Assembly (NCBI GenBank): GCA_963697335.1
Contig: CAVONQ010000018.1
Span: 96,001 to 160,000, forward strand
DNA length: 64,000 nt
Source of the DNA: an uncultured cyanobacterium
GTDB lineage: Bacteria > Cyanobacteriota > Cyanobacteriia > PCC-6307 > Cyanobiaceae
Direction of reading: 5' to 3'
Positions 26,176 through 57,189 of the stretch are shown here, piece after piece. Below the pieces are notes generated by a model that made no database searches, was not told the DNA's origin, and saw only the letters and a program-made list of their open reading frames with translations. Each line of letters begins with the position of its first letter. Positions within the stretch are counted from its first letter, which is position 1. The position numbers and the translations under genes are program-made.

Positions 26176-27641
26176 GAGGGGGAGCCCTGCCCTTGCACCT
26201 GACCGTCGGCCCGTTCACTGACGATCCAGGTGTCCTTGCAGCCGCCACCCTGGGAGGAGTTCACCACCAGGGAGCCCCGCCGCAGGGCCACCCGGGTCAG
26301 ACCGCCTGGGCTGACCCAGGCCCCCTTGCCCCGCAGGACGTAGGGCCGCAGGTCCACATGGCATGGGAACAGTTCGCCCTCACTCAGGGAGGGCACCGTG
26401 GAGAGTTCCAGGGTGGGCTGGGCAATGTAGTTGCGCGGGTTGTCCTGGATGCGCTGGGCGAAGTCGTTGATCTCGTCCTGGTCGGCGTGGGGGCCGATCA
26501 TCATTCCGTACCCGCCAGCTTCGGCCACTGCCTTCACCACCAGTTGGTTCAGGTGCTCCAGCACGTAGGCCCGGTCCTTGTCGCGGGAGCAGAGGTAGGT
26601 GGGCACATTTTCGATGATGGGCTCCTCCCCGAGGTAGTACTGGATCATCTCGGGCACGTAGGCGTAGATGAGCTTGTCGTCAGCCACCCCCGTGCCCGGA
26701 GCATTGGCGATCGCCACCCGACCGGCGCTGTAGGCCTGCATCAGGCCCCTCACCCCCAGCATTGAGTCGCTGCGGAACACGGCGGGATCAAGGAAGTCAT
26801 CGTCGATGCGGCGGTAGATCACATCCACGGGCTCCAGGCCGCCGGTGCTGCGCATCCACACCCTGTCGTCCTGGCAGACCAGGTCGCGGCCCTCCACCAG
26901 CTGGATGCCCATCTGCTGGGCCAGGTAGCTGTGCTCGAAGTAGGCACTGTTGAACACCCCTGGGGTGAGCAGCACCACCGTGGGGCGCTCGGTCCAAGGG
27001 GCCAGCTCCCTGAGGCTCTGCAGCAGGTGGGAGGGGTAGTCGTCGATCGGCTGCACGGTGCGGCCGGAGAACAGGCTGGGGAACATCCGCTTCATCACGC
27101 GGCGGTTCTCCAGGAAGTAGGCCACCCCTGACGGGCAGCGCAGGTTGTCTTCCAGGACCCGCCAGGTGCCCTTGCCATCCCGGATCAGATCCAGGCCGGA
27201 GACGTGGCACCACTTGTTGAGCGGTGGCTGGAATCCCTGCATCTGGGGCCGCCAGCCCTGGGAAGTCTCCAGGTCTTCCCGGGGCACGATGCCGTCCCGC
27301 AGGATCAGCTGGTCGCCGTAGATGTCGGCGAGGAAGAGGTCGATCGCCTCGAGGCGCTGCACCAGGCCCCGCTCCAGGGTCTGCCACTCGCTGGTGCCGA
27401 TCAGCCGTGGCAGGGGGTCAAAGGGCAGGATCCGTTCCACCCCCCGGTTGCCCGAGCCGTTGAGCCGGAAGGTGGCCCCGAGCCGCTTCAGCAACATGCC
27501 CGCTGCCACATGGTTGCGGTTGAGCTCTTCGAGGCCCAGCTGCCCCAGGGAGGAGAGCAGGGGCTGCAGGGCGCTGCGGGGTTCGTCCGTGGCGCTGAAG
27601 TACTCGTCGTAGCCGCGGTGGGGCTTGTAGTCGGTGAACAC
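26169..27641 (-). CDS. Circularly permuted type 2 ATP-grasp protein
   Basis: VLEDNLRCPSG, NSAYFEHSYLA, IYRRIDDDFLDP, HVDLRP and VVNSSQGGGCKDTW motifs. Confidence 0.93.
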   Translation of the reverse strand: MFTDYKPHRGYDEYFSATDEPRSALQPLLSSLGQLGLEELNRNHVAAGMLLKRLGATFRLNGSGNRGVERILPFDPLPRLIGTSEWQTLERGLVQRLEAIDLFLADIYGDQLILRDGIVPREDLETSQGWRPQMQGFQPPLNKWCHVSGLDLIRDGKGTWRVLEDNLRCPSGVAYFLENRRVMKRMFPSLFSGRTVQPIDDYPSHLLQSLRELAPWTERPTVVLLTPGVFNSAYFEHSYLAQQMGIQLVEGRDLVCQDDRVWMRSTGGLEPVDVIYRRIDDDFLDPAVFRSDSMLGVRGLMQAYSAGRVAIANAPGTGVADDKLIYAYVPEMIQYYLGEEPIIENVPTYLCSRDKDRAYVLEHLNQLVVKAVAEAGGYGMMIGPHADQDEINDFAQRIQDNPRNYIAQPTLELSTVPSLSEGELFPCHVDLRPYVLRGKGAWVSPGGLTRVALRRGSLVVNSSQGGGCKDTWIVSERADGQVQGQGSPSC

Positions 27642-27663
27642 GCTGGGACTCCAGGCTGGGTTG

Positions 27664-27706
27664 ATCCTGCAGTGCAGAGGAGCCGCGTCCCGGTGGCGTT
27701 TGTTAC
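27664..27706 (-). promoter_or_regulatory. Putative NtcA-activated promoter of the ATP-grasp operon
   Basis: Minus strand GTA-ACAAACGC-CAC (27706-27693), 23-nt spacer, CAGGAT (27669-27664), the same hexamer seen upstream of nirA. Confidence 0.6.
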
Positions 27707-27904
27707 CAACACCCAGCCAGTTTCGGTTGGCGTGCTGGTGCCCTGGCTGGAGTGGAGCTGGCCGTTGCAGCAGGCCGATGGCTCTGCAACAGGGGCGGCG
27801 CTGGCACTGGATCTCTACGCCGGTTCCAACTGGAGTGGCTCATCCCCACGCTACACAGCGTGGCTCGAACCAGCCTTCCGTGCTGCCGGGTGAGTGGCTC
27901 AGGC

Positions 27905-30900
27905 TCAGAGCCACTCCCTGCCCACCGGCGCGAATGGATCGGGACCGCTGAGTGGTCCTGCCGGCGAGATCAGGTCCTGGGGCGAAGCGGCAGGGGACTG
28001 CACCCCCTGGGATGGTGCAGCCGAGAACGTGGCGATCTCCGAACCGGCCGTGCTGCCACGGGCGTCGCTGCCGCCGGCAGGGGTGGGGGCTGGCGGGGGC
28101 GTTGCTGAGTTCGTTTCTGAGGGCGTTGGGGTGGGGCTGCCGGTGATCGGATCCACAGGGCTGGCCAGCCTCCCATCTGCCGCAAGCCCCGGGGCGTTGG
28201 AGCCGCCGACTTGGCTGGAGCTGAAGCGGCCCGCCTCGCTGATCGCGTTGCCAGCCACGGGCAAGCCGGTCAGTTCGTCGACCGGGGACCCTGCGGTGGT
28301 GGTGCTGTCCTGCGGGATTGTGAGAGCGCTGCTCTCTCCGGGAGAGGAGGCGGCGCCGGAGAGCGATTCAGCCGATTGAAAGGCGACATCCACCCAATAG
28401 TTGCTGGCGTTGTAAGACTGATTGGGCATCAACAATTCGGTGCCATACCGGTAGAAGCCGTTGCTGCTGGTCCCATCGCTCTGGGGAGCGCTCAGCACGC
28501 CCGTGGGTTCACTGAAGCTTTCATTGTCAAGTCCGTCAAAGTCAAGCTCTCCAGCTGGGGTGAAGAAATTGCTGCTGGCGATATAATTGTTGTATGTCCT
28601 GTAGGACACCACGTAGCTCTCGCCGGCCAGAACGTCAACGGGCGTGTTGAGATCTGCTCTCTGCCAGCCCCATTGGTCTGGTGTGGATGTGATCTCGGTT
28701 GAGCCAAGCAGGAGTCCGTCAGACGAGCGCCAGACATGCAGGTTGCGGGTGTCCGTGTCGCTGGCATCGTCGATGTGACGATAGTACTTCAGTGCAGTGA
28801 TCTGGCCCCCTTGACTGACGCTGAATGCCATGCCCAGCTCCAGGGCTGTGTTGTCGTTGAACAGGCTTCCATTGATGCTGACTCCCGACCTGTCCAGGAT
28901 GCTGAGTCTGCTGTCAGCGTCGTCATTGAGGATGGTCCCTGTGGCGGCAGCGGTGGCGATTGAGGTGTTGGTTGGATTGGAGAGGGAAACACTGAAGTCC
29001 TCATCAGGTTCAGCGCTGAGATCAGCGGCCACGTTGACGGTGATGACCTGGCTCGTTTCACCCGCGGCGAAGGTCACGGTGCCGGAGGGCAGTGTGCCGT
29101 CGAAATCGGAGGGGGCCGCCGGGTTACTGCCGGACCCGCTGACACTCCAGGTCACGGAGCTGGTACTGCTTGTGTCGCCACTGCGGTTGACGGTGAAGCT
29201 GTAGGCGGTTGAGCCGGTGTCTCCTTCTGGCTTGATCGCATCGCTGGCGATGATGGTAAGGGAAGAAAGTGGTGCGGTGGCCACGACGAAGGTGACATCC
29301 GCCCAGTAGTTGGAGGCTCCAAAGGTGTTGTTGGGCAGAATCAGATCAGTGCCAACCCTGTAGACCCCGTTGCCGCCGCTGCCCGGACCACTGACCACCG
29401 AGCTCTGGGGAGCGGTGAGAAGGCCGAACGGATCGGTGAAGGCATCGTCGTCGATGCCATCAAAGGTGATCTCGTTGTCTGGACTGAAGAAGCCGCTGGT
29501 TGAGAAGTAGTTGTTGTCTGTGGTGTAGGAGACGACATACTCCGCTCCGGTGCTGACGTCGATGGGAGTGGAGAGAGCAGCTCTCTGCCAGCCGGATTGA
29601 CCCGGGCCGGAGGTGAAGCTGACGGTGCCGAGCAGGGAGCCATCCGATCGACGCCAGAGGCGGCCAGTGCGCAGGTCGGTGTCGCCGGCATCGGCGGCAT
29701 CACGGTAATACCTGAGTTCGGTGATGGTTCCCGCCTGGGTGGGGCTGAACGCCATGCCGAGCTCCAGGGGGACATTGTCATTGAAGAGCTGGCCGTTGAG
29801 CGGCAGAGCCGGATTGAAGAGGCTGACGCTGGTGGGAGTCTCGGTGACGGTGACGGGGGTGGAGGTCACCGATTCGGCAAAGCCCTGGCCATCGGTGTAG
29901 CTCACCTGGACACGCACCTGCTGGTCCTGATCGGCTTGGTTCAGGGTGTAGGTGCTGGCATTGGTGCCGATGGGATTCCAGGTGATGCCGTTGCTGCTGG
30001 ATTGCCAGTTGTAGGCAAAGGTGCCATTGCCGTTGGGGTCATCGGCCGTTGTGGTGGTGGCCAGGATGCCGCCGACGGCGGCGGTGCCGGCGATCGCGAA
30101 GACCGCCGCACCGCCATTGACGGGAGGCAGCGAAACGCCGGGCGCAAAGGTGACATCCGCCCAGTAGTTGGAGGCTCCAAAGGTGTTGTTGGGCAGAATC
30201 AGATCAGTGCCAACCCTGTAGACCCCGTTGCCGCCGCTGCCCGGACCACTGACCACCGAGCTCTGGGGAGCGGTGAGAAGGCCGAACGGATCGGTGAAGG
30301 CATCGTCGTCGATGCCATCAAAGGTGATCTCGTTGTCTGGACTGAAGAAGCCGCTGGTTGAGAAGTAGTTGTTGTCTGTGGTGTAGGAGACGACATACTC
30401 CGCTCCGGTGCTGACGTCGATGGGAGTGGAGAGAGCAGCTCTCTGCCAGCCGGATTGACCCGGGCCGGAGGTGAAGCTGACGGTGCCGAGCAGGGAGCCA
30501 TCCGATCGACGCCAGAGGCGGCCAGTGCGCAGGTCGGTGTCGCCGGCATCGGCGGCATCACGGTAATACCTGAGTTCGGTGATGGTTCCCGCCTGGGTGG
30601 GGCTGAACGCCATGCCGAGCTCCAGGGGGACATTGTCATTGAAGAGCTGGCCGTTGAGCGGCAGAGCCGGATTGAAGAGGCTGACGCTGGTGGGAGTCTC
30701 GGTGACGGTGACGGGGGTGGAGGTCACCGATTCGGCAAAGCCCTGGCCATCGGTGTAGCTCACCTGGACACGCACCTGCTGGTCCTGATCGGCTTGGTTC
30801 AGGGTGTAGGTGCTGGCATTGGTGCCGATGGGATTCCAGGTGATGCCGTTGCTGCTGGATTGCCAGTTGTAGGCAAAGGTGCCATTGCCGTTGGGGTCAT

Positions 30901-33604
30901 CGGCCGTTGTGGTGGTGGCCAGGATGCCGCCGACGGCGGCGGTGCCGGCGATCGCGAAGACCGCCGCACCGCCATTGACGGGAGGCAGCGAAACGCCGGG
31001 CGCAAAGGTGACATCCGCCCAGTAGTTGGAGGCTCCAAAGGTGTTGTTGGGTAGAACGAGATCGTCGCCAACCTTGTAGACGCCATTGCCACCAGTGGCA
31101 GGACCGCGGACCACCGTGCTTTGGGGGGCTTGGAGAAGGCCGAACGGATCGCTGAAGGCGTCGTTGTCGATGCCATCGAAGGCGATCTCGTTTGCAGGAT
31201 GAAAGAAGTTATTGGTTGAAAGGTAGTAGTTTTCTGTGATATAGGAGACGATGTACTCCGCTCCAGCGCTGACCTCGATGGGCGCGGGTAGTGCGGCGCT
31301 CTGCCATCCGGACTGGCCCGGACTGGAGGTGAAGGTGACCGTGCCGAGTAGGGAGCCATCCGAGCTGCGCCACAGGCGGCCGGTGCGCACGTCGGTGTTA
31401 CCGGCATCGACGGCGTCACGGTAATACCTGAGTTCGGTGATCGCCCCGGCCTGGGTGGGGCTGAACTTCATGCCAAGCTCGTAGACGGCATTGTCATTGA
31501 AGAGCAGTCCGTCGACCGGGTAGGTCGGATCGAACAGGCTCACAGTGTCCGGGGTGATGGCACCGGTCACCGTGACTGTGCTCTCAGCAAGGCTGAGGTT
31601 GGCACTATTGAGGCTGTCATCAATGGCACGAACCTGGATCGTGACGGTGCCCGGGCTGGTGGGTCGCCACGAGTAGCTCCAGTTGGTTGTGCCCTGGGCC
31701 AGCCTCCAGGTGTTTCCAGCGTCGAAGGAGATTTCCACGGCGGCGACGATGCCGTCGTCGCTGGAATCGGCGGAGGTGCCGTTGTCATCCACGGCCGTAC
31801 CGGTGATCAGCACGGAAGCCAGAGCGGACACCTCGCTGGGGAGGGGGTTGAGGGTGGCCGTTGCCCCGATCGCATCGGTGCTGGCGAAGGCACGCACCAG
31901 GTTCTGGCTGAGGAGCACCGCATCCGCCACGCCGGGCTGGATGCCCATGTCGGCAAACAGATTGAGGGTGAATTGTTGAAGTGCCCGGTTTTCTATGTCG
32001 GCGCTATAGGGCGTGTCGTCGTGCTCGTTGCTGAGGCCCCAGCTCCAGAACACCGTGCCGGCGCCGAACACCAGCGCACCGCTCTCGGCGCGGTAGAGGG
32101 AGAGGTTGTGGGTGGCGACGCCAGGGGCACCGCGGTTGCCCTGGTCAAAGACGATCGAACTCCACGGAATCGTGGTTTCGGAGAGCTTGATCAGGCCAGC
32201 AGGGCGCGAGTCGCCCTCGGGTGACGTGTTCCACTCGTAGCCGAGGATGCCTGGTGCCAGGTCAAAGGCACCGTCATCGGCGGCTTCCGTGTCGCGCCAG
32301 AATCTCAAGCCTGCGAAGGAGGCCGGGATATCCAGGGCACCTCCAAACTCGCCGGTTCCATCGGGGCCAAAGAGCTGCCCCGTTAAGGATGTCTCAGCGC
32401 AGTTGCAGGTTGATCGCAACCCTGTGATGGAATCAAAGTAGGTTGGGCCACCGGCGATCAGGTTGCCTTCAGCGTCGACCGAATTGTGAAAGCGGGTGTC
32501 ACGCCAGGTTCCTGTCCAGATGTTGGAAGGATCGATATTGGCATAGTCTTCTGGGAGTGCATAGGGATCGCTGTTGGCAAATGTTTCTTTGTAGGTGACA
32601 AGGGTACGATGGCTGTCGCCATCGTCGGCGATGCTCGACTCCCAGCGGGTTTTCCAATAAACCTCATTCCCACTCCAAAACAGCAGGTTGACCCCGGCAT
32701 CACGCGCCTCCTCAACATTGATCCGCTGATCTCCGGACCAGTACTCATCATGCCCTACAGAGATGAAAGCGTTATAGTTCTTCAGGTAGTCTGCGCCAAG
32801 GCGATCAGCGTCAACCCCTGAGATGTAAGAAATATCATAGCCATTCTTTTCCAGCCAGTAGATGGCGGCGTAGTCTGCGCCGAAAAGATAATCATGAGGC
32901 CCTGAAGCAACGCTGGTGCCGTTGCGTGTGATGAACGGCCTGTTGTAGCTGACAGCGTAGGCCCGGTTCTTGCCAAGCTGGCCCTCGCTCAGAATCGGAG
33001 TGCGATTGATGAGCCCTGCGACGTCACCGTAGAGGTTCGGACCATCAAAATTACTGTTGCCGAGCTCTCCAGCCCAGCCGTTGTAGGCCTGCCAGGTCGT
33101 GTCTGACGTCTGCAGCACGATGTCAGCGGCGAGGCCATCGTTGCGAACGATGAAGGGGATCTGATTCGCTTCGTCTGCTATCGCCTCGCCATTTTCGTCC
33201 AGGCGTTGCACACGGGCGAGGTAGACGCCCGACACTGCGTCTGGAGGCACATCCCAACTGTCTGTGACGAGCCAGTTGCCGGCATCCACGAGGCCAAGAT
33301 CCGGGTCGTAGAGAGGAAGTTCCTGATCCACCGCATTGGTGTTCAGGAGTTCAGCGACAACGCGTGCCCCCGCACCGCCGTAGTGGCCAAGTCGGAAAAT
33401 CTCTATCCGGTAATCGCTTTCGGCACCATTATTGACATTGATCTTGAAGTCAACAGTCCCACCTGCATTGACGCTGATGTCGGTCGTGAAGCCTTCAATC
33501 GCTGTGCTGTGGGGAACATCCCAGTAGCCCCGCGTCAAGGGATCGCCATTGGGCGTCGTCAGCCCTGCCGTCTGGGCATTTTCGATAACGATCCTGTTGC
33601 TCAT
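27905..33604 (-). CDS. 1899-aa multidomain protein: N,N-dimethylformamidase beta-subunit-like domain, Ig-like spacers, four DUF4082-like domains, Calx-beta domain, Pro/Ser-rich tail
   Basis: SGVYLA, TTWQAYN, VSYNRP, VGHDEYWS, GYEWN and GALVFGAGT motifs. Four ELGMxF..ITxLxYY...NYWxDVxF repeats; EPDEDFSVSL..ATGTILNDD Calx-beta. GGAG RBS before the ATG. Confidence 0.85.
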   Translation of the reverse strand: MSNRIVIENAQTAGLTTPNGDPLTRGYWDVPHSTAIEGFTTDISVNAGGTVDFKINVNNGAESDYRIEIFRLGHYGGAGARVVAELLNTNAVDQELPLYDPDLGLVDAGNWLVTDSWDVPPDAVSGVYLARVQRLDENGEAIADEANQIPFIVRNDGLAADIVLQTSDTTWQAYNGWAGELGNSNFDGPNLYGDVAGLINRTPILSEGQLGKNRAYAVSYNRPFITRNGTSVASGPHDYLFGADYAAIYWLEKNGYDISYISGVDADRLGADYLKNYNAFISVGHDEYWSGDQRINVEEARDAGVNLLFWSGNEVYWKTRWESSIADDGDSHRTLVTYKETFANSDPYALPEDYANIDPSNIWTGTWRDTRFHNSVDAEGNLIAGGPTYFDSITGLRSTCNCAETSLTGQLFGPDGTGEFGGALDIPASFAGLRFWRDTEAADDGAFDLAPGILGYEWNTSPEGDSRPAGLIKLSETTIPWSSIVFDQGNRGAPGVATHNLSLYRAESGALVFGAGTVFWSWGLSNEHDDTPYSADIENRALQQFTLNLFADMGIQPGVADAVLLSQNLVRAFASTDAIGATATLNPLPSEVSALASVLITGTAVDDNGTSADSSDDGIVAAVEISFDAGNTWRLAQGTTNWSYSWRPTSPGTVTIQVRAIDDSLNSANLSLAESTVTVTGAITPDTVSLFDPTYPVDGLLFNDNAVYELGMKFSPTQAGAITELRYYRDAVDAGNTDVRTGRLWRSSDGSLLGTVTFTSSPGQSGWQSAALPAPIEVSAGAEYIVSYITENYYLSTNNFFHPANEIAFDGIDNDAFSDPFGLLQAPQSTVVRGPATGGNGVYKVGDDLVLPNNTFGASNYWADVTFAPGVSLPPVNGGAAVFAIAGTAAVGGILATTTTADDPNGNGTFAYNWQSSSNGITWNPIGTNASTYTLNQADQDQQVRVQVSYTDGQGFAESVTSTPVTVTETPTSVSLFNPALPLNGQLFNDNVPLELGMAFSPTQAGTITELRYYRDAADAGDTDLRTGRLWRRSDGSLLGTVSFTSGPGQSGWQRAALSTPIDVSTGAEYVVSYTTDNNYFSTSGFFSPDNEITFDGIDDDAFTDPFGLLTAPQSSVVSGPGSGGNGVYRVGTDLILPNNTFGASNYWADVTFAPGVSLPPVNGGAAVFAIAGTAAVGGILATTTTADDPNGNGTFAYNWQSSSNGITWNPIGTNASTYTLNQADQDQQVRVQVSYTDGQGFAESVTSTPVTVTETPTSVSLFNPALPLNGQLFNDNVPLELGMAFSPTQAGTITELRYYRDAADAGDTDLRTGRLWRRSDGSLLGTVSFTSGPGQSGWQRAALSTPIDVSTGAEYVVSYTTDNNYFSTSGFFSPDNEITFDGIDDDAFTDPFGLLTAPQSSVVSGPGSGGNGVYRVGTDLILPNNTFGASNYWADVTFVVATAPLSSLTIIASDAIKPEGDTGSTAYSFTVNRSGDTSSTSSVTWSVSGSGSNPAAPSDFDGTLPSGTVTFAAGETSQVITVNVAADLSAEPDEDFSVSLSNPTNTSIATAAATGTILNDDADSRLSILDRSGVSINGSLFNDNTALELGMAFSVSQGGQITALKYYRHIDDASDTDTRNLHVWRSSDGLLLGSTEITSTPDQWGWQRADLNTPVDVLAGESYVVSYRTYNNYIASSNFFTPAGELDFDGLDNESFSEPTGVLSAPQSDGTSSNGFYRYGTELLMPNQSYNASNYWVDVAFQSAESLSGAASSPGESSALTIPQDSTTTAGSPVDELTGLPVAGNAISEAGRFSSSQVGGSNAPGLAADGRLASPVDPITGSPTPTPSETNSATPPPAPTPAGGSDARGSTAGSEIATFSAAPSQGVQSPAASPQDLISPAGPLSGPDPFAPVGREWL
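29289..31051. repeat. Intragenic tandem duplication with 858-bp period
   Basis: 29289-30193 matches 30147-31051, apparently identically. Shadow ORFs 29341..29781 and 30199..30639 are identical and offset by 858. Confidence 0.92.
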
Positions 33605-33676
33605 GATGCATCTCCAGTGACGTAGATAGATTTCCTCAGTTCGGCTCCAGTGCCTTGGCCGAGTGATCAGACGGGT

Positions 33677-34837
33677 TTAACCGGTGCGTATGAGACAGGC
33701 ATCGAGGCCGGCCGACAGGTCTGCCTGATCGAGACCAGTCCCGATAAACACCAGTTCCTGGCGTCTGTCTCCGTGCGGTTCTTGCCAGTCGCGACGGATG
33801 CGAGCCACGGTCGCTGTGTCCTGGGGCCAGACCGAGCGTGGAGTGGCGGCCCACCAACGCCCAAAGGGCTTGAATGACCCCATGCAGCCGGCCAGGCTGA
33901 ATTGCAGAGCCAAGCTGGGCTCACCGGCCACCCAGCAGTGGCCCTTGGCGCGGATCACCCCAGACAGGGGCCCGCTCAGCATGTGCTGAAGCTGCTCCAG
34001 GTCGAATGGATCGCGCGCGCGATAGACGAAGGATGTGATGTTGTGCGTTTCCGTTTCTGGCCGATGCTCCGCGAAACCATGCAGTTCTCGAAACCAGAGC
34101 GCGTTGCGGCGGGCCTGCTCAAAACTGAAATGCCCGGTGCGGAGAACATGCGTGAGTGCTACATCGCCGTAGTTGGCCTTGATCAGTTGTGCTGTGGGAT
34201 TGAGGCTCCGAATCACGCGAGTGGCGATCGCGACTCGCTCAGACCCGGCAGCGGTCACCTTATTTAGAATAATCACATCAGCGAATTCAATCTGGTCGAC
34301 CAGTAGTTCCACCAGGGTCCGATCATCCACCTCATCCCGAGGTTGATCGCGATCCCGCAGCAGGTCTCGACACCGATAGTTCTCAAGTAGGTTCACGGCA
34401 TCGACCACGGTGACCATGGTGTCGAGACGTGCGACGTCACTCAGGCTGGCTCCGTTCTCGTCACGAAAGTCAAAGGTTGCTGCTACTGGCAAAGGCTCCG
34501 AAATGCCTGTGGATTCAATGACCAGATCGTCGAAGCGGCCGAGTTCAGCTAGGCGGCGAACCTCGCTCAGCAGGTCGCCACGCAAGGTGCAACAGATGCA
34601 GCCATTGGTTAACTCAACTAGTGTCTCATCGGTGTGGTTGAATCCGTCGCTGTCCTGGCGAACCAGATCGGCATCGATGTTCACTTCTGACATGTCATTC
34701 ACGATCACCGCGACCTGTCGTCCCTCTCTGTTGTTGAGAATGTGATTGAGCAGGCTCGTTTTTCCGGCACCCAGAAATCCCGACAACACTGTGACAGATA
34801 GACGCTTTGATCCTGTTGGTTCGATGTCTTTTTGCAT
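33677..34837 (-). CDS. COG0523 (CobW / Fe-nitrile hydratase activator / ZigA family) G3E GTPase metallochaperone
   Basis: [47 protein letters not shown] and [11 protein letters not shown] motifs. Confidence 0.93.
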
Positions 34838-35113
34838 CGTGGTTGGACTCTTGCTATTGGACGCCAGGATTGCTCTGAGGGAGGGGACCCTTGAAGCCGG
34901 CAGACTGGGCTACGCCAGCGTCGTCAGCACAGCATCCCTGCCTTAGGCTTCGTCCCTAAGGCGATAGAAATCGCGGCAAACCTCCATCAGCTTGTTCGTG
35001 GCCGTGCAGAACTTTCAATCCGCCGCCAAGAGTCTGCGCGTTTCTGCTCTTGATGCGCAGCTTCTAAAGCCTTTGTGTCGTGGCGTTGCGCTCCGGCCAG
35101 CCCGGGGCTCCTC

Positions 35114-36832
<1,719 letters not shown>

Positions 36833-53020: not shown

Positions 53021-55981
53021 CCACCCAGTCCCAGCGAGCTCCGCTGCAGGCGCACCCCGCCTTCGCGGGCCTCTCTCAGGCTGCTCTCGATGGCCTGCAG
53101 GACGGTTGCCAGCGGCGCAGCTTCTCCCTGGGCGAGCCCCTCTGCCACGACAGCCTGATCCCCTCGGAGGTGCTGCTGGTGCTGGAGGGCACGGCCCGCC
53201 TGCTGGTGCGCGACCAGGGGGCCCTGCGCACCGGCGCCCGGCTCGGGCCCGGCAGCCTGGTGGGGCTGGCCTCGCTGCTGCGCGCCGCTCCCTGCGAGGA
53301 GGTGAGCGCCGCCTCCGAGCTGGAGGCCCTGGTGCTGCCCGATCAGCTGGTGCTGCAGCTCCTGGCCGAACAGCCGGGCTTTGCGGCCTGGTGTGGCTCC
53401 GAGCTGTTCACGGCGGAACTGCTGGACCTGCTCGCAGGGTTGCTGGCGCGTCAGTCCAAGGGTGGGGCCTCCCTGCTGGAGCTCCATGGCCAGGTGGCCC
53501 CGGAGGCTGTGCTGGTGGCCCCCCAGGCGGAGGCCTTGGCCACACTTCCCCCCGACCTGGTGCTGTTTGCCGCGAGCTCCAATCTGCCCGGCCAGGCCCT
53601 GGGTGCCCTTCTGGACCCCCACCTGGGGGTGCCGGCCTCACGGCCACCCCTGCCGCCCCGGTTGATCGCCCTGCCGGAGGCGCTGGTGGCAAGCCTGGCG
53701 GATCCGGTCCCTGTCGTTGCGGAACTGGAGGACGCCGAGGCTGAGCCTGGGCTGCAGCGCTCCTCCAGCCCTGGTGCCCGTGGGCGCAGGCGAGGGCCCC
53801 CAGGCCAGCCGCCTCGACCTGGGGCAGCAGCCCAGGCCGGAGCTGCGCCTGCTGCGGGGCAGCGGGCCCCTGGAGGAAACCCTCGCCTGCTTCCAGATGC
53901 TGGCGATGGAGCTGCGGCTGCCCTTCCGGCGCGACTCGATCGAGAAGATCCTGCGGGATGTGCTGCGCCGCGGCCAGACGCCGGATCTGCAGCTGTGCGG
54001 CAACATCGGCGCCCTGATGGGGCTGCACGTGAGCGGCGTGCGGGTGCCGGCCTCCCAGGGCACGCGGCTGCAGGTGCCGGCCCTGGTGCCCTGGAAGGGG
54101 GGCTTCGCCCTGGTGCGGGCCTCTGACGCCCGGGGCCTGGTGCTCGCCTCACCCCGGGATGGCTGGGTGGAAGTCGTCCCCTCGGAGCTGGAAGCGACCT
54201 TCCCGGACGGCATCGAACTGCTGCTGATGGAGCGCAGCAACAGCACCCCGGATCAGCGCTTCAACTTCAACTGGTTCTGGCCCTCCCTGAAGCGCTACCG
54301 CGGCCTGCTGCTGCAGGTGCTGGTGGCCTCCTTCGTGGTGCAGCTGTTCAGCCTCGCCAACCCGCTGCTCATCCAGGTGATCATCGACAAGGTGATTGCC
54401 CAGCGCAGCCTCGACACGCTGCAGGTGCTCGGGATGGCACTGGTGGTGGTGACCCTGATGGAGGGGTTGATCGGGGCCCTGCGCACGTTCCTGTTCACCG
54501 AAACCACCAACCGCATCGACCTGCGGCTCGGCGCTGAGGTGATCGATCACCTGTTGCGCCTGCCCCTGGGCTATTTCGACCGCCGCCCGGTGGGCGAGCT
54601 GGGCACCCGGGTGGCCGAACTGGAGAACATCCGCGAATTCCTCACCGGCCAGGCCCTCACCACCCTGCTCGACACCGCCTTTTCGGTGATCTACATCGTG
54701 GTGATGCTGTTCTACAGCTGGCTGCTGACCCTGATTGCCCTCTGTGTGCTGCCGATTCAGGTGGGGCTCACGGTGCTGGGGGCGCCCCTGTTCCGGCGTC
54801 AGTATCGCCAGGCGGCCGAGGAGAACGCCCGCACCCAGAGCCACCTGGTGGAGGTGCTCACCGGCATTCAGACGGTGAAGGCCCAGAACGTGGAAATGAT
54901 CAGCCGCTGGAAGTGGCAGGACCTCTACTCCCGCTACATCGCCCGCAGCTTTGAGAAGACGATCACCGGCACGGCCCTGGTGGAAACCTCCCAGGTGCTG
55001 CAGAAGCTCTCCCAGCTGTTGGTTCTCTGGGTGGGGGCAAGCCTGGTGCTCAAGGGCGAGATGAGCCTGGGCCAGCTGATCGCCTTCCGGATCATTTCCG
55101 GTTATGTCACTCAGCCGCTGCTGCGCCTCTCCTCCATCTGGCAGAACATCCAGGAGCTGAAGGTGTCCTTTGAGCGCCTGGCCGATGTGGTGGACACTCC
55201 AGAGGAATCCAATGAGGCAGACAAGCAGAAGATCCCCTTGCCGCCGATTGACGGGGATGTGGCCTTCCGCGATGTGACGTTCAGCTTCGAACCCGGTTCA
55301 CCGCCGGTGCTGCGCCACGTGGATCTGCAGATTGCCGCCGGCACCTTCGTGGGGGTGGTGGGCCAGAGCGGCAGCGGTAAGAGCACCCTGATGAAGCTGC
55401 TGACCCGGCTCTACTCGCCCAACGAGGGCAAGATCCTGATCGACGGCTACGACATCGACAAGGTGGAGCTCTACTCGCTGCGCCGCCAGATCGGCATCGT
55501 GCCCCAGGAGCCCCTGCTGTTCAGCGGCTCCGTGGCCGAGAACATTGCCCTCACCGATCCCGATGCCAGTAGTGATGCGATCGTCGAGGCAGCACGCCTG
55601 GCCTGCGCCCACGACTTCATCATGGAGCTGCCGGGCGGCTACAGCGCCAATGTGGGTGAGCGCGGTGCTGGCCTCTCGGGCGGGCAACGCCAGCGCCTCG
55701 CCCTGGCCCGCACCCTGCTGTCGCGCCCGAAGCTGCTGGTGCTCGATGAGGCCACCAGCGCCCTCGACTACGACACCGAGCGGCGCGTCTGCGACAACCT
55801 GCTGGAGAACCTGCGCCACTGCACGGTGTTCTTCATCACCCACCGCCTCTCCACCATCCGCCGGGCAGATCTGATCGTGATGCTTCAGGATGGGGCGGTG
55901 GTTGAGACAGGCACCCACGACCAGCTGATCGAGCAGCGTGAGCGCTATTACGCGCTCTACCGCCAGCAGGAGGCGTCGTGA
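53017..55981 (+). CDS. Type I secretion ABC transporter, HlyB family (cNMP-binding, C39-like, TMD and ATPase domains; frameshift near 53755)
   Basis: N-terminal cNMP-like domain in frame 52942..54126; QVIIDKV, GQSGSGKST, LSGGQRQR and LDEATSALD in frame 53717..55981. Confidence 0.88.
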
Positions 55982-57189
55982 CCCCAGAGCACTCCCCAAC
56001 CCCAACCCCCGCCAAGCCGGCTGAGTCGGCCCTGGTGCCGCGGGCATCGTCGCTGGTGCGGGCCGGCCAGAACGCCCTCGAACAGCGGGTCCGCAGCAGC
56101 CATGAGGGCATGGTGCTGCAGCAGTCTCGCTTCATGGCGCGGGCGATCACCTGGGCCCTGATTGGCACCACGGGTTTTGCCCTGGCCTGGCTGGCCCTGG
56201 CCCAGACGGAGGAGGTGGTGATTGCTCAAGGCAAACTTGAGCCCATCGGCGACGTGCAGACAGTGCAGATGCCCGTGGGCGGCGTGCTCGACACCATGCT
56301 CGTCAAGGAGGGGGAGCGGGTGAGCAAGGGGCAGGTACTGCTGCGCCTCGACAATGAAACCACCCTGGATCGTCGCGACGGTCTGCTGGACTCGATTCGC
56401 TCCAAAGAGCAGCAGTTCGCCCTCAAGCAGCTTGAGCTGCAGCGCTATCTCGCCCTCAACGACACCGAGCAACAGGTGCTGGGGCGCAACCTCGAGCTGC
56501 AGCGGCAGGTGCTGGCCCGGCTGGAGTCGCTGCAGGCCGTGGGCGCCGTGCCCGAACTGGAATACCTGCAGCAGCGCAATCAGACCCGCGAAGTGGAGGG
56601 CGACCTGGAGAAGACCAAGGTGGACCGCCTGCGCCAGGTGGCCATCCTCAAGCAGGCCGTGTCAGAGCTGGAGGTGGAACTCTCGGAGCTGCGCAGCCGC
56701 CTGACGGAATCGAAGGTGAACATCCGCTATCAGGACGTGCGCTCCCCGGTGGACGGGGTGGTGTTCGACCTCAAGCCCACGGGCCCGGGCTTCGTGGCCC
56801 AGGGCAGCGAGCCGGTGATGAAGATCGTGCCCCTCGATGAACTTGAGGCCAAGGTGGAGATCGACAGCGCTGACATCGGCTTCGTGCGGGTGGGCAAGCC
56901 GGTGGACATCAGCATTGATTCCTTCCCCTCCTCGGATTTCGGCGTGCTGAACGGCACGCTGGCCTCGATCGGCTCTGATGCCCTGCCGCCGGAAGACCAA
57001 AAGCCCAACTACCGCTTCCCGGCGGTGATCAAGCTCCAGGATCAGCAGCTGCAGTTGAAGTCCGGCAAGGAGCTGCCGCTGCAGGTGGGGATGTCGCTGA
57101 CGGCCAACATCAAGCTGCGCAAGGTCACCTACCTGCAGCTGCTGCTGGGCGAGTTCAAGGACAAGACCGACTCTCTCAAGCGCCTCTGA
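55978..57189 (+). CDS. HlyD-family membrane fusion protein
   Basis: N-terminal TM segment, AQGKLEP, VRSPVDGVV, DIGFV and LQVGM motifs. Confidence 0.92.
   Translation: MTPEHSPTPTPAKPAESALVPRASSLVRAGQNALEQRVRSSHEGMVLQQSRFMARAITWALIGTTGFALAWLALAQTEEVVIAQGKLEPIGDVQTVQMPVGGVLDTMLVKEGERVSKGQVLLRLDNETTLDRRDGLLDSIRSKEQQFALKQLELQRYLALNDTEQQVLGRNLELQRQVLARLESLQAVGAVPELEYLQQRNQTREVEGDLEKTKVDRLRQVAILKQAVSELEVELSELRSRLTESKVNIRYQDVRSPVDGVVFDLKPTGPGFVAQGSEPVMKIVPLDELEAKVEIDSADIGFVRVGKPVDISIDSFPSSDFGVLNGTLASIGSDALPPEDQKPNYRFPAVIKLQDQQLQLKSGKELPLQVGMSLTANIKLRKVTYLQLLLGEFKDKTDSLKRL

Follow-up and report, generated by a model that had tools for sequence, protein, structure and literature searches.

Several GTPases of the G3E/COG0523 type are dedicated to a single client, e.g., CobW (cobalt chelatase), the activator of Fe-type nitrile hydratase, UreG and HypB. 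They are encoded beside the metalloenzyme that they serve and are inherited with it, and their clients are cytoplasmic. The clients of COG0523 proteins represent, to our knowledge, a long-standing gap, most of them having been guessed from zinc-starvation regulons. Here we analyzed a stretch of 64,000 nucleotides (contig CAVONQ010000018.1, positions 96,001 to 160,000; in the following, the window) from the 2.58 Mb genome of an uncultured picocyanobacterium (PCC-6307; Cyanobiaceae; assembly GCA_963697335.1, referred to as G000). In this window, a ZigA-like COG0523 gene is followed, 72 bp further downstream on the same (-) strand, by a gene for a giant protein of 1899 amino acids (P0002 and P0001, respectively; for coordinates, see Table 1). 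The N-terminal part of the giant protein (the head) is a domain with the fold of N,N-dimethylformamidase (DMFase), and the two genes have moved horizontally as one module. The logic of the arrangement is that of the dedicated GTPases named above; the candidate client is here, however, predicted to be exported.

Two enzymes are the closest structurally characterized relatives of the head. One is the large subunit of Paracoccus DMFase, a soluble α2β2 enzyme in which, according to the account of its active site, the iron is ligated by Y399, Y440 and E521, H519 is close by, N547 is the oxyanion residue and the base is probably E657 (PMC7686228). The other is N-acetyl-(R)-β-phenylalanine acylase (8HUY, 8I5A). 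The Pfam family DMFA2_C (PF20254) was recognized in the head at aa 66-529 with 279.9 bits (gathering score 27, E 5.5e-83). An AlphaFold model of aa 1-580, made with an alignment of 35 sequences, had a predicted local distance difference test score (pLDDT) of 81 and a predicted template modeling score (pTM) of 0.88, and Foldseek matched it to 8i5a/8huy and 6lvb with a probability of 1.00 and E 1e-16 to 1e-18. In the VIA alignment, Z was 27.8-28.5 and the root-mean-square deviation (rmsd) 2.8-3.0 Å over 407-425 residues, while the next unrelated entry had a Z of 10.8; strong matches of the model were limited to these two solved families. Residues 33-580 of the model are colinear with positions 3-762 of the matched chains. 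With the DMFase large subunit (6LVB; PMC7686228), the head shares the fold over its whole length (Z 27.8, rmsd 3.0 Å, 425 residues; model residues 34-580 against chain positions 4-762) at ~18% identity. The acylase is its best match in sequence (profile E 2.2e-18) as well as in structure (Z 28.5), and as this enzyme cleaves an N-acetyl amide, the chemistry of the family reaches beyond formamides. The differences from Paracoccus DMFase are that the head lacks Y440 and its loop, that it forms the N-terminus of a multi-module, predicted exported protein rather than part of a soluble enzyme, and that the inserted islet holding the pair encodes two genes only, with no gene for the small (15-kDa) subunit.

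The active-site residues were mapped at the sequence level, by aligning a profile of the head family to 6lvb (E 3.2e-8); a first profile, built from full-length proteins, had been distorted by N-terminal extensions (6lvb at E 0.029), and the head-family profile was used instead. The numbering was confirmed by the mutant chains Y440A and E521A (6lvd and 6lve) in the same output. DMFase residues Y399, H519, E521 and N547 correspond to Y174, H285, E287 and N313 of the head, and each of the four is invariant in 35 of 35 head sequences, which come from Alphaproteobacteria, Actinomycetota, Acidobacteriota, Verrucomicrobiota, Planctomycetota, Chloroflexota and others (at least 6 phyla). The motifs pointed out in the preliminary description of this DNA, which had been made from the sequence alone and had called the N-terminal domain DMFase-like, are all where it had seen them (TTWQAYN at aa 169-175, NLYG at 190-193, VGHDEYWS at 283-290, GYEWN at 455-459), and the likeness itself has turned out to be a true DMFase-fold domain with most of the active-site residues kept. 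By these alignments, the site is largely conserved but not identical, and we therefore file the head in the DMFase superfamily rather than as a dimethylformamidase. A chance open reading frame (ORF) was also considered and is ruled out, the head alone having more than 4000 database relatives.

Does the GTPase gene accompany the giant gene elsewhere? The preliminary description had set this beforehand as a test of its proposal, and the two genes do recur side by side. We surveyed the best 80 of at least 605 matching stretches in species-representative genomes; for the neighbor counts, ORFs were called by ourselves and grouped by BLAST, and one member of each group was scanned with Pfam. In 16 of the 80 loci (plus a remnant in L012), all of them from Alphaproteobacteria, we found a ZigA-like gene of full length. 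It was on the same strand as the giant gene in all 16 cases and within 160 bp of it or overlapping it in 14. Two gene orders were found: in L008-L011 and L052, the ZigA-like gene precedes the giant gene, and in the remaining eleven loci it follows, the order there being giant gene, GTPase gene, small ORF, ATP-binding cassette (ABC) exporter with a C39-type domain, and HlyD. HlyB-type ABC genes occur in 14 of the 80 loci and HlyD genes in 13, and a COG0523 gene is present in 11 of the 14 ABC loci. A second sample consisted of 401 evenly drawn alphaproteobacterial genomes, with the best match per genome only. PF20254 was found in 72 of them, mostly in frames of ~750 aa. Four frames reached at least 1700 aa (in G486, G314 and two in G301), and in three of these a ZigA-like gene followed on the same strand at a distance of 3-4 kb, which was not the case for any of the ~750-aa DMFase-like frames listed in this sample. 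Conversely, of 41 genomes whose ZigA-like gene matched at E 1e-90 or better, 3 have it in this position. No COG0523 neighbor was found for the non-alphaproteobacterial homologues of the 80-locus survey, the GTPase being tied to leaderless forms with linked type I genes.

Two further features of these loci may be mentioned. A small ORF of ~110-126 aa without Pfam match is present in 7 of the 80 loci (L016, L022, L027, L028, L032, L053, L059); in L016 and L027 it lies between the GTPase and ABC exporter genes (in L017, an ORF occupies the same slot), and the islet has no counterpart of it. Some Rhizobium genomes (L024; G304, with L109 and L116) hold two giant gene/GTPase gene pairs, the GTPases of which fall into different partner sub-clades.

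The GTPase has the two domains of its family (cobW, E 1e-51; CobW_C, E 8.9e-25), and its GCICC motif is at aa 79-83; both this motif and the Walker A sequence GFLGAGKT are invariant in 24 of 24 aligned GTPases. On the NCBIfam model for ZigA (NF038288), it scored 530.7 bits, under the cut-off of 600. It is 55-65% identical to the alphaproteobacterial copies found beside giant genes (partner copies) and 77% identical to the copy in another picocyanobacterium, G110. Six cobW-domain genes are present in G000, i.e., ureG, a CobW-like gene on contig C6, two weaker matches, the islet GTPase gene and a COG0523 gene on contig C5. The last of these belongs to a resident zinc cluster, and its product is only 31% identical to the islet GTPase, which is therefore an extra, foreign copy. 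The arrangement described for marine cyanobacteria in a passage of Barnett et al. (PMC3323870), in which zinc-linked COG0523 genes stand beside zur and znuABC, fits the C5 cluster and not the islet. The C5 cluster (~103000-113800; L103, L104) comprises znuB-znuC-znuA, hisIE, a Cu/Zn-efflux-like gene, a gene for a FUR-family regulator, the COG0523 gene and a porin gene.

In comparison with the ZigA/YciC-type GTPases, the islet protein has the same two domains, Walker A and CxCC, and differs in the lack of a Zur box and in the linkage to one particular neighbor gene. Further ZigA-like paralogues, located away from the giant gene, are present in 4 of 5 alphaproteobacterial genomes examined. In all four of the unlinked paralogues inspected, ATGTTATnnTATAACAT (0-2 mismatches) directly precedes the start; this consensus of the alphaproteobacterial Zur box was confirmed on these very sites. 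The islet GTPase is 55-62% identical to these Zur-box-bearing proteins. At up to 3 mismatches, however, no such box was found in 19 partner loci (338,639 nt) or in the window; only scattered matches with 4 mismatches occur in them, none at a promoter. As for the host's own zinc control, a 17-nt candidate box (CGATAATGrTTcyCAyT) precedes znuA and the porin gene and is found nowhere else in G000 at up to 1 mismatch; the islet contains nothing within 3 mismatches of it, the motif being built on two sites only. In a quick tree, the Rhizobiales partner GTPases form one clade (SH-aLRT 99), and the unlinked copies branch between this clade and the basal partners, i.e., the islet GTPase and its G110 counterpart. 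This nesting, together with the absence of Zur boxes, indicates that the partners are very close kin of ordinary ZigA that have lost Zur control. The upstream regions of 17 partner loci had only GC-rich 8-mers in common, shared by at most 6 loci, and AT-rich palindromes near the partner genes were inconsistent; in L052, GATATTAAATATC lies between the two genes. Arginine at position 166 of the islet GTPase is found in 19 of 20 partner copies and in none of 4 unlinked ones, which have Leu, Val or Ala there; judged by the alignment, this is a candidate specificity position.

The head family is very large and uncharacterized. More than 4000 head relatives were found in one search among proteins of 1044-3324 aa, fused to DUF4082, cadherin and VCBS modules and often to RTX repeats; RTX repeats are present, e.g., in P0005, an 81% identical relative. 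The nearest non-cyanobacterial relatives are alphaproteobacterial (60-69% identity over 600 residues). In 10 of 11 non-alphaproteobacterial homologues inspected, a Sec-type hydrophobic leader stands straight before the head (in the eleventh, L076, the head is an internal domain). The preliminary description had taken the giant protein to be exported or surface-located; these leaders in other phyla and the type I genes in Alphaproteobacteria argue, for the family as a whole, that the head works outside the cell.

The commonest neighbors of giant genes in the 80 loci are those encoding DegT aminotransferases (20 loci), GFO/IDH/MocA oxidoreductases (19), epimerases/dehydratases (14) and hexapeptide acyltransferases (14), and GT2 and GT4 glycosyltransferases, Wzx, Wzy and Bac_transf priming transferases recur as well. 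These genes are the toolkit for polysaccharides of N-acetylated amino sugars. One of the GTPase-bearing loci, L011, lies inside such a cluster. As the family is large, extracellular and often embedded in amino-sugar polysaccharide clusters, its chemistry may matter for the remodeling of surface glycans. The stalk would fit this. A model of one DUF4082 module (module 1; pLDDT 86.7) is a β-sandwich whose best matches are phage baseplate/fiber and receptor-binding modules, PHR domains, the lectin-like domain of Cwp84, and the carbohydrate-binding modules CBM6 and CBM35; because of this resemblance, DUF4082 looks like a binding module, plausibly for glycans.

Full-text literature searches brought up no publication that treats this architecture or connects a COG0523 protein with it. 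Described proteins of similar genetic setting are pRL90159 and pRL90161 of R. leguminosarum, which were predicted as substrates of the BltDE exporter and for which a bacteriocin-like role was guessed (Krehenbrink and Downie 2008, PMC2275737). They are large, have repeated motifs of ~140 aa and no classical RTX domain, and are encoded upstream of genes for a C39-type ABC protein and HlyD, an arrangement that matches the Rhizobium loci L024 and L027, although the proteins themselves were not aligned; the passages of that paper which deal with them name neither an enzyme head nor a GTPase. In the window, genes for an ABC exporter (754 aa) and an HlyD-family protein (403 aa) are located at 53717-57189 (+), the former without a C39 domain in the Pfam scan. 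This pair is the best match in the genome (37% identity) to the exporter of the Rhizobiales giant genes and, on this similarity, only a candidate exporter for the giant protein.

The reading that we prefer, and in which we place about as much belief as doubt, is that the pair makes an exported, glycan-directed metallo-deacylase and its dedicated chaperone, forming one mobile module that is functionally unconnected with the surrounding nitrogen genes. The giant protein would be exported or surface-located, with the head acting as a metal-dependent amide hydrolase and the stalk of lectin-like DUF4082, Ig-like and Calx-beta modules holding it on a surface or matrix glycan. Its most likely substrate would be an N-acyl group (formyl or acetyl) carried by an amino-sugar polysaccharide of the cell surface or the extracellular space rather than small dissolved amides. 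The GTPase would be a ZigA-type COG0523 paralogue outside the Zur regulon, co-inherited as the private maturation factor of the giant protein, and with GTP it would probably control the acquisition of metal (most likely Zn) by the head during the time that the leaderless protein spends in the cytoplasm before its type I-style export. It may either pre-load or retain the head or keep it metal-free until export, and we make no choice between these. That the Sec-exported relatives manage without a GTPase suggests that its job is specific to a fully made protein waiting in the cytoplasm. The narrower idea that a Zur-independent ZigA-type paralogue in type I secretion operons governs the metal state or folding of an extracellular client, namely the head, is a tentative one that we rate as possible rather than probable. 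The GTPase would here either load a metal that is not available outside the cell or leave the head without metal and competent for export. If true, this would be the first case, apart from cobalamin and nitrile hydratase, of a COG0523 protein genetically fixed to its client, and it would for the first time connect a metallochaperone with a secretion system; the module would also be mobile enough to pass from Alphaproteobacteria into picocyanobacteria. Irrespective of that, gene order links a ZigA-type GTPase here with a single candidate client; the link is kept in two arrangements and through a horizontal transfer, and the GTPase has lost its Zur box, which makes the question of COG0523 clients directly testable in tractable hosts, e.g., Rhizobium or Cereibacter.

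A number of observations weigh against the preferred reading. The preliminary description had expected the Tyr/Tyr/Glu ligand set of DMFase; Y399 and E521 are indeed kept (as Y174 and E287), whereas the second tyrosine, Y440, has no counterpart column, as it sits in an insertion that DMFase and the acylase have in common and that the head family lacks. Of the other tyrosines, Y192 (in NLYG) is conserved in just 6 of 35 sequences, and Y220 is conserved in 34 but pairs with W454 of DMFase. With Y440 lost and Y192 so rarely kept, the metal site differs from that of DMFase and may even be missing. No position could be assigned to the catalytic base E657 either: a profile of the C-terminal half of the head gave only chance-level matches in the PDB, with neither DMFase nor the acylase among them. 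A weak stretch of the acylase (i-E 1.4e+02) sets its GFEL on GYEW of the head, which makes E457 a candidate, though an unproven one. As regards the GTPase, the partner copies are not one clean clade in the quick tree, and the head does not need a chaperone everywhere, since the Sec-exported homologues have no COG0523 neighbor. The glycan side is affected by the fact that amino-sugar neighbors are found mostly at the non-alphaproteobacterial loci and not at the GTPase-bearing ones. Concerning export, the islet carries no exporter gene and the giant protein no RTX repeats, and type I substrates are believed to cross the membrane unfolded, C-terminus first, so that a metal inserted beforehand would either be lost or obstruct the passage. 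Finally, in the passage on the bltD mutant of R. leguminosarum, no visible change of supernatant proteins is reported (PMC2275737).

Some of these points would be expected if the giant protein were an adhesin or a bacteriocin-like protein, with a head that binds without cleaving or that kills competitors, and a GTPase that is either a passenger or serves export or immunity instead of metal delivery. This explanation would account for the missing metal ligand and for a stalk of adhesin-type modules (with cadherin, VCBS and RTX in the relatives), the resemblance of DUF4082 to phage receptor-binding and lectin-like modules agrees with it, and the relatives' exporter has the C39-type domain known from bacteriocin exporters; it is also close to what Krehenbrink and Downie (PMC2275737) guessed. 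We nevertheless consider it unlikely, as four mapped site residues that are invariant in all 35 sequences across phyla are hard to explain for a head that only binds, and as Walker A and CxCC are kept in each of the 24 GTPases. Furthermore, adjacency that is kept in two gene orders argues for a function of the GTPase rather than for hitch-hiking.

The genomic position of the pair had led the preliminary description to a different proposal, in which the GTPase supplies the metal to an exported amidase, and this enzyme releases nitrogen from amides outside the cell, within the nitrogen cluster (urea, cyanate, formamide) and under nitrogen control. The description of the site was accurate: the two genes are co-oriented, 72 bp apart and low in GC (0.55-0.63 across the pair compared to 0.66-0.72 in the flanks; G+C at third codon positions 0.74 and 0.64 compared to 0.84-0.90 in the ATP-grasp operon), and they lie between this operon and ureC. 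One flank contains the ATP-grasp/alpha-E/transglutaminase operon and the genes for cyanase (cynS), a formate/nitrite transporter (focA) and nirA, and the other contains ureCBA-ureD, ureE, ureG, urtABCDE and formamidase. The tie to this cluster, however, fails on four counts. First, the islet is an insertion into the spacer between ureC and the ATP-grasp gene: two complete genomes of the same genus have this spacer intact (~90-110 bp), and the homology of the window to them breaks at ~27643 and is picked up again at ~35113. Second, none of 16 same-genus genomes contains a close relative of the head (searched with the head as query), and only one of 300 other genomes of the family does, namely G110, which belongs to a different genus. 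Third, the G110 pair, with the same order of GTPase gene and giant gene (77% and 82% identity) and again of lower GC, has a different context, its neighbors encoding a type III polyketide synthase, a P450, a methyltransferase and a copper ATPase. Fourth, a search for perfect NtcA sites (GTAN8TAC) found two in the window (18654 and 21288) and none in 27641-35112.

The metagenomes point in the same direction. A single contig of 2248 nt covers 32912-35159 and bridges the ureC junction, and other contigs have loose ends at 27640 and 35112 from which they read on like the islet-free spacer. Because the spacer is intact in relatives and islet-free variants co-occur in the same metagenomes, the islet is a presence/absence polymorphism and no fixed part of the nitrogen cluster, and because G110 holds both genes in the same order in another context, the two have moved together. 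An assembly chimera was rejected, as both flanks show synteny with relatives, the ureC junction is spanned by an independent contig and G110 has the same pair. Besides, the contigs (4 runs) gave little or no coverage of ~27900-32600, i.e., of most of the giant gene, from which nothing is concluded, and an odd joint of 28629 to 34516, present in a single contig with a 21-letter side, was set aside as unreliable.

The nitrogen proposal retains the amidohydrolase fold of the head with most of its site residues, the location between ureC and other nitrogen genes and the extracellular nature of the family. Nitrogen-uptake genes are missing among the recurrent neighbor families of the related loci, and with the cluster tie gone, scavenging of nitrogen from extracellular amides has no support beyond the fold. 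We regard it as very improbable; the place of the islet among nitrogen genes looks accidental, and, as a caution, a position inside a nitrogen cluster is in itself no evidence of a nitrogen function. The least credible alternative, a zinc-limitation module in which an ordinary Zur-controlled ZigA works with a zinc-sparing or zinc-capturing surface protein, would suit the GTPase's score on the ZigA model, its similarity to Zur-box-bearing paralogues and a tree that does not part all partner copies from unlinked ones, but the Zur box that all four unlinked paralogues carry is absent (at up to 3 mismatches) from the 19 partner loci and the window, the host's zinc-cluster box is absent from the islet (a weak test with a two-site motif), and znuABC, TonB receptors or zinc-free paralogues are not among the recurrent neighbors, so that zinc-limitation control, named in the preliminary description as evidence that would speak against its proposal, was not seen.

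The preferred reading of an exported deacylase and its chaperone also draws on the modules behind the head, which are listed in Table 1. The four DUF4082, Ig-like and Calx-beta modules, like the G3E GTPase with GCICC, had been recognized in the preliminary description and were found again by Pfam and in the translation; the four DUF4082 stretches have E 4e-123, and the Pfam scan found no RTX repeats (PF00353) in the giant protein.

Table 1. Features of the islet and of its two genes (positions in the window; aa, residues of the giant protein unless the GTPase is named)
Feature	Position	Strand	Basis
Giant protein gene P0001, 1899 aa; no N-terminal signal peptide by eye	27905..33604	-	ORF, translation, Pfam
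Head, aa 1-580: Ig-like sandwich and DMFase-like domain	31865..33604	-	PF20254 (279.9 bits), AlphaFold model, structure alignment
Ig-like module, ~aa 585-680	31565..31852	-	Profile match to the C-terminal Ig-like domain of sulfite oxidase, E 1.8e-5
DUF4082 module 1, aa 685-875	30980..31552	-	Pfam, best stretch aa 703-862
Two tandem 858-bp units (286 aa each): Ig-like and DUF4082 modules 2 and 3	29289..31004	-	Repeat search
Calx-beta module, aa 1466-1562	28919..29209	-	PF03160, E 2.1e-8, 34.7 bits
DUF4082 module 4, aa 1565-1745	28370..28912	-	Pfam, self-similar stretches
Pro/Ser/Ala-rich C-terminal tail, ~aa 1746-1899	27908..28369	-	Reading of the translation; no RTX repeats
ZigA-like COG0523 G3E GTPase P0002, 386 aa, with Walker A GFLGAGKT and GCICC	33677..34837	-	cobW, CobW_C
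Strain-variable inserted islet, ~7.5 kb, holding both genes	27641..35112		ureC/ATP-grasp spacer
Spacer between GTPase gene and giant gene, 72 bp	33605..33676	-	Sequence reading
Upstream region of the pair, 276 bp, containing a hairpin	34838..35113	-	No Zur-like box, no GTAN8TAC

The tandem 858-bp units are 100% identical to each other over a 300-nt reference stretch, of which a third copy begins at 31005 with 82% identity (region 29289-31304). Assemblers can collapse or expand perfect repeats, and the true copy number may therefore differ. Tandem Repeats Finder reported no repeat here, a period of 858 bp being above its limit.

In the G110 locus (L094; contig C31, 1-9522), an FAD oxidoreductase gene also precedes the cassette, with genes for a YHS-domain P-type ATPase and a DUF305 protein further upstream, and the contig stops ~140 nt beyond the giant gene. 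Four other picocyanobacterial genomes contain distant DMFA2_C-type frames (L090-L093 in G177, G086, G291 and G225; 29-31% identity, 588-670 aa, one with an in-frame TGA), which are a different, shorter subfamily. Two perfect hairpins flank the pair in the window, both with 7-bp stems and without a clear T-run: one at 34941-34961, upstream of the GTPase gene, with a loop of 7 nt, and one at 27846-27863, ~40 nt past the stop codon of the giant gene, with a loop of 4 nt.

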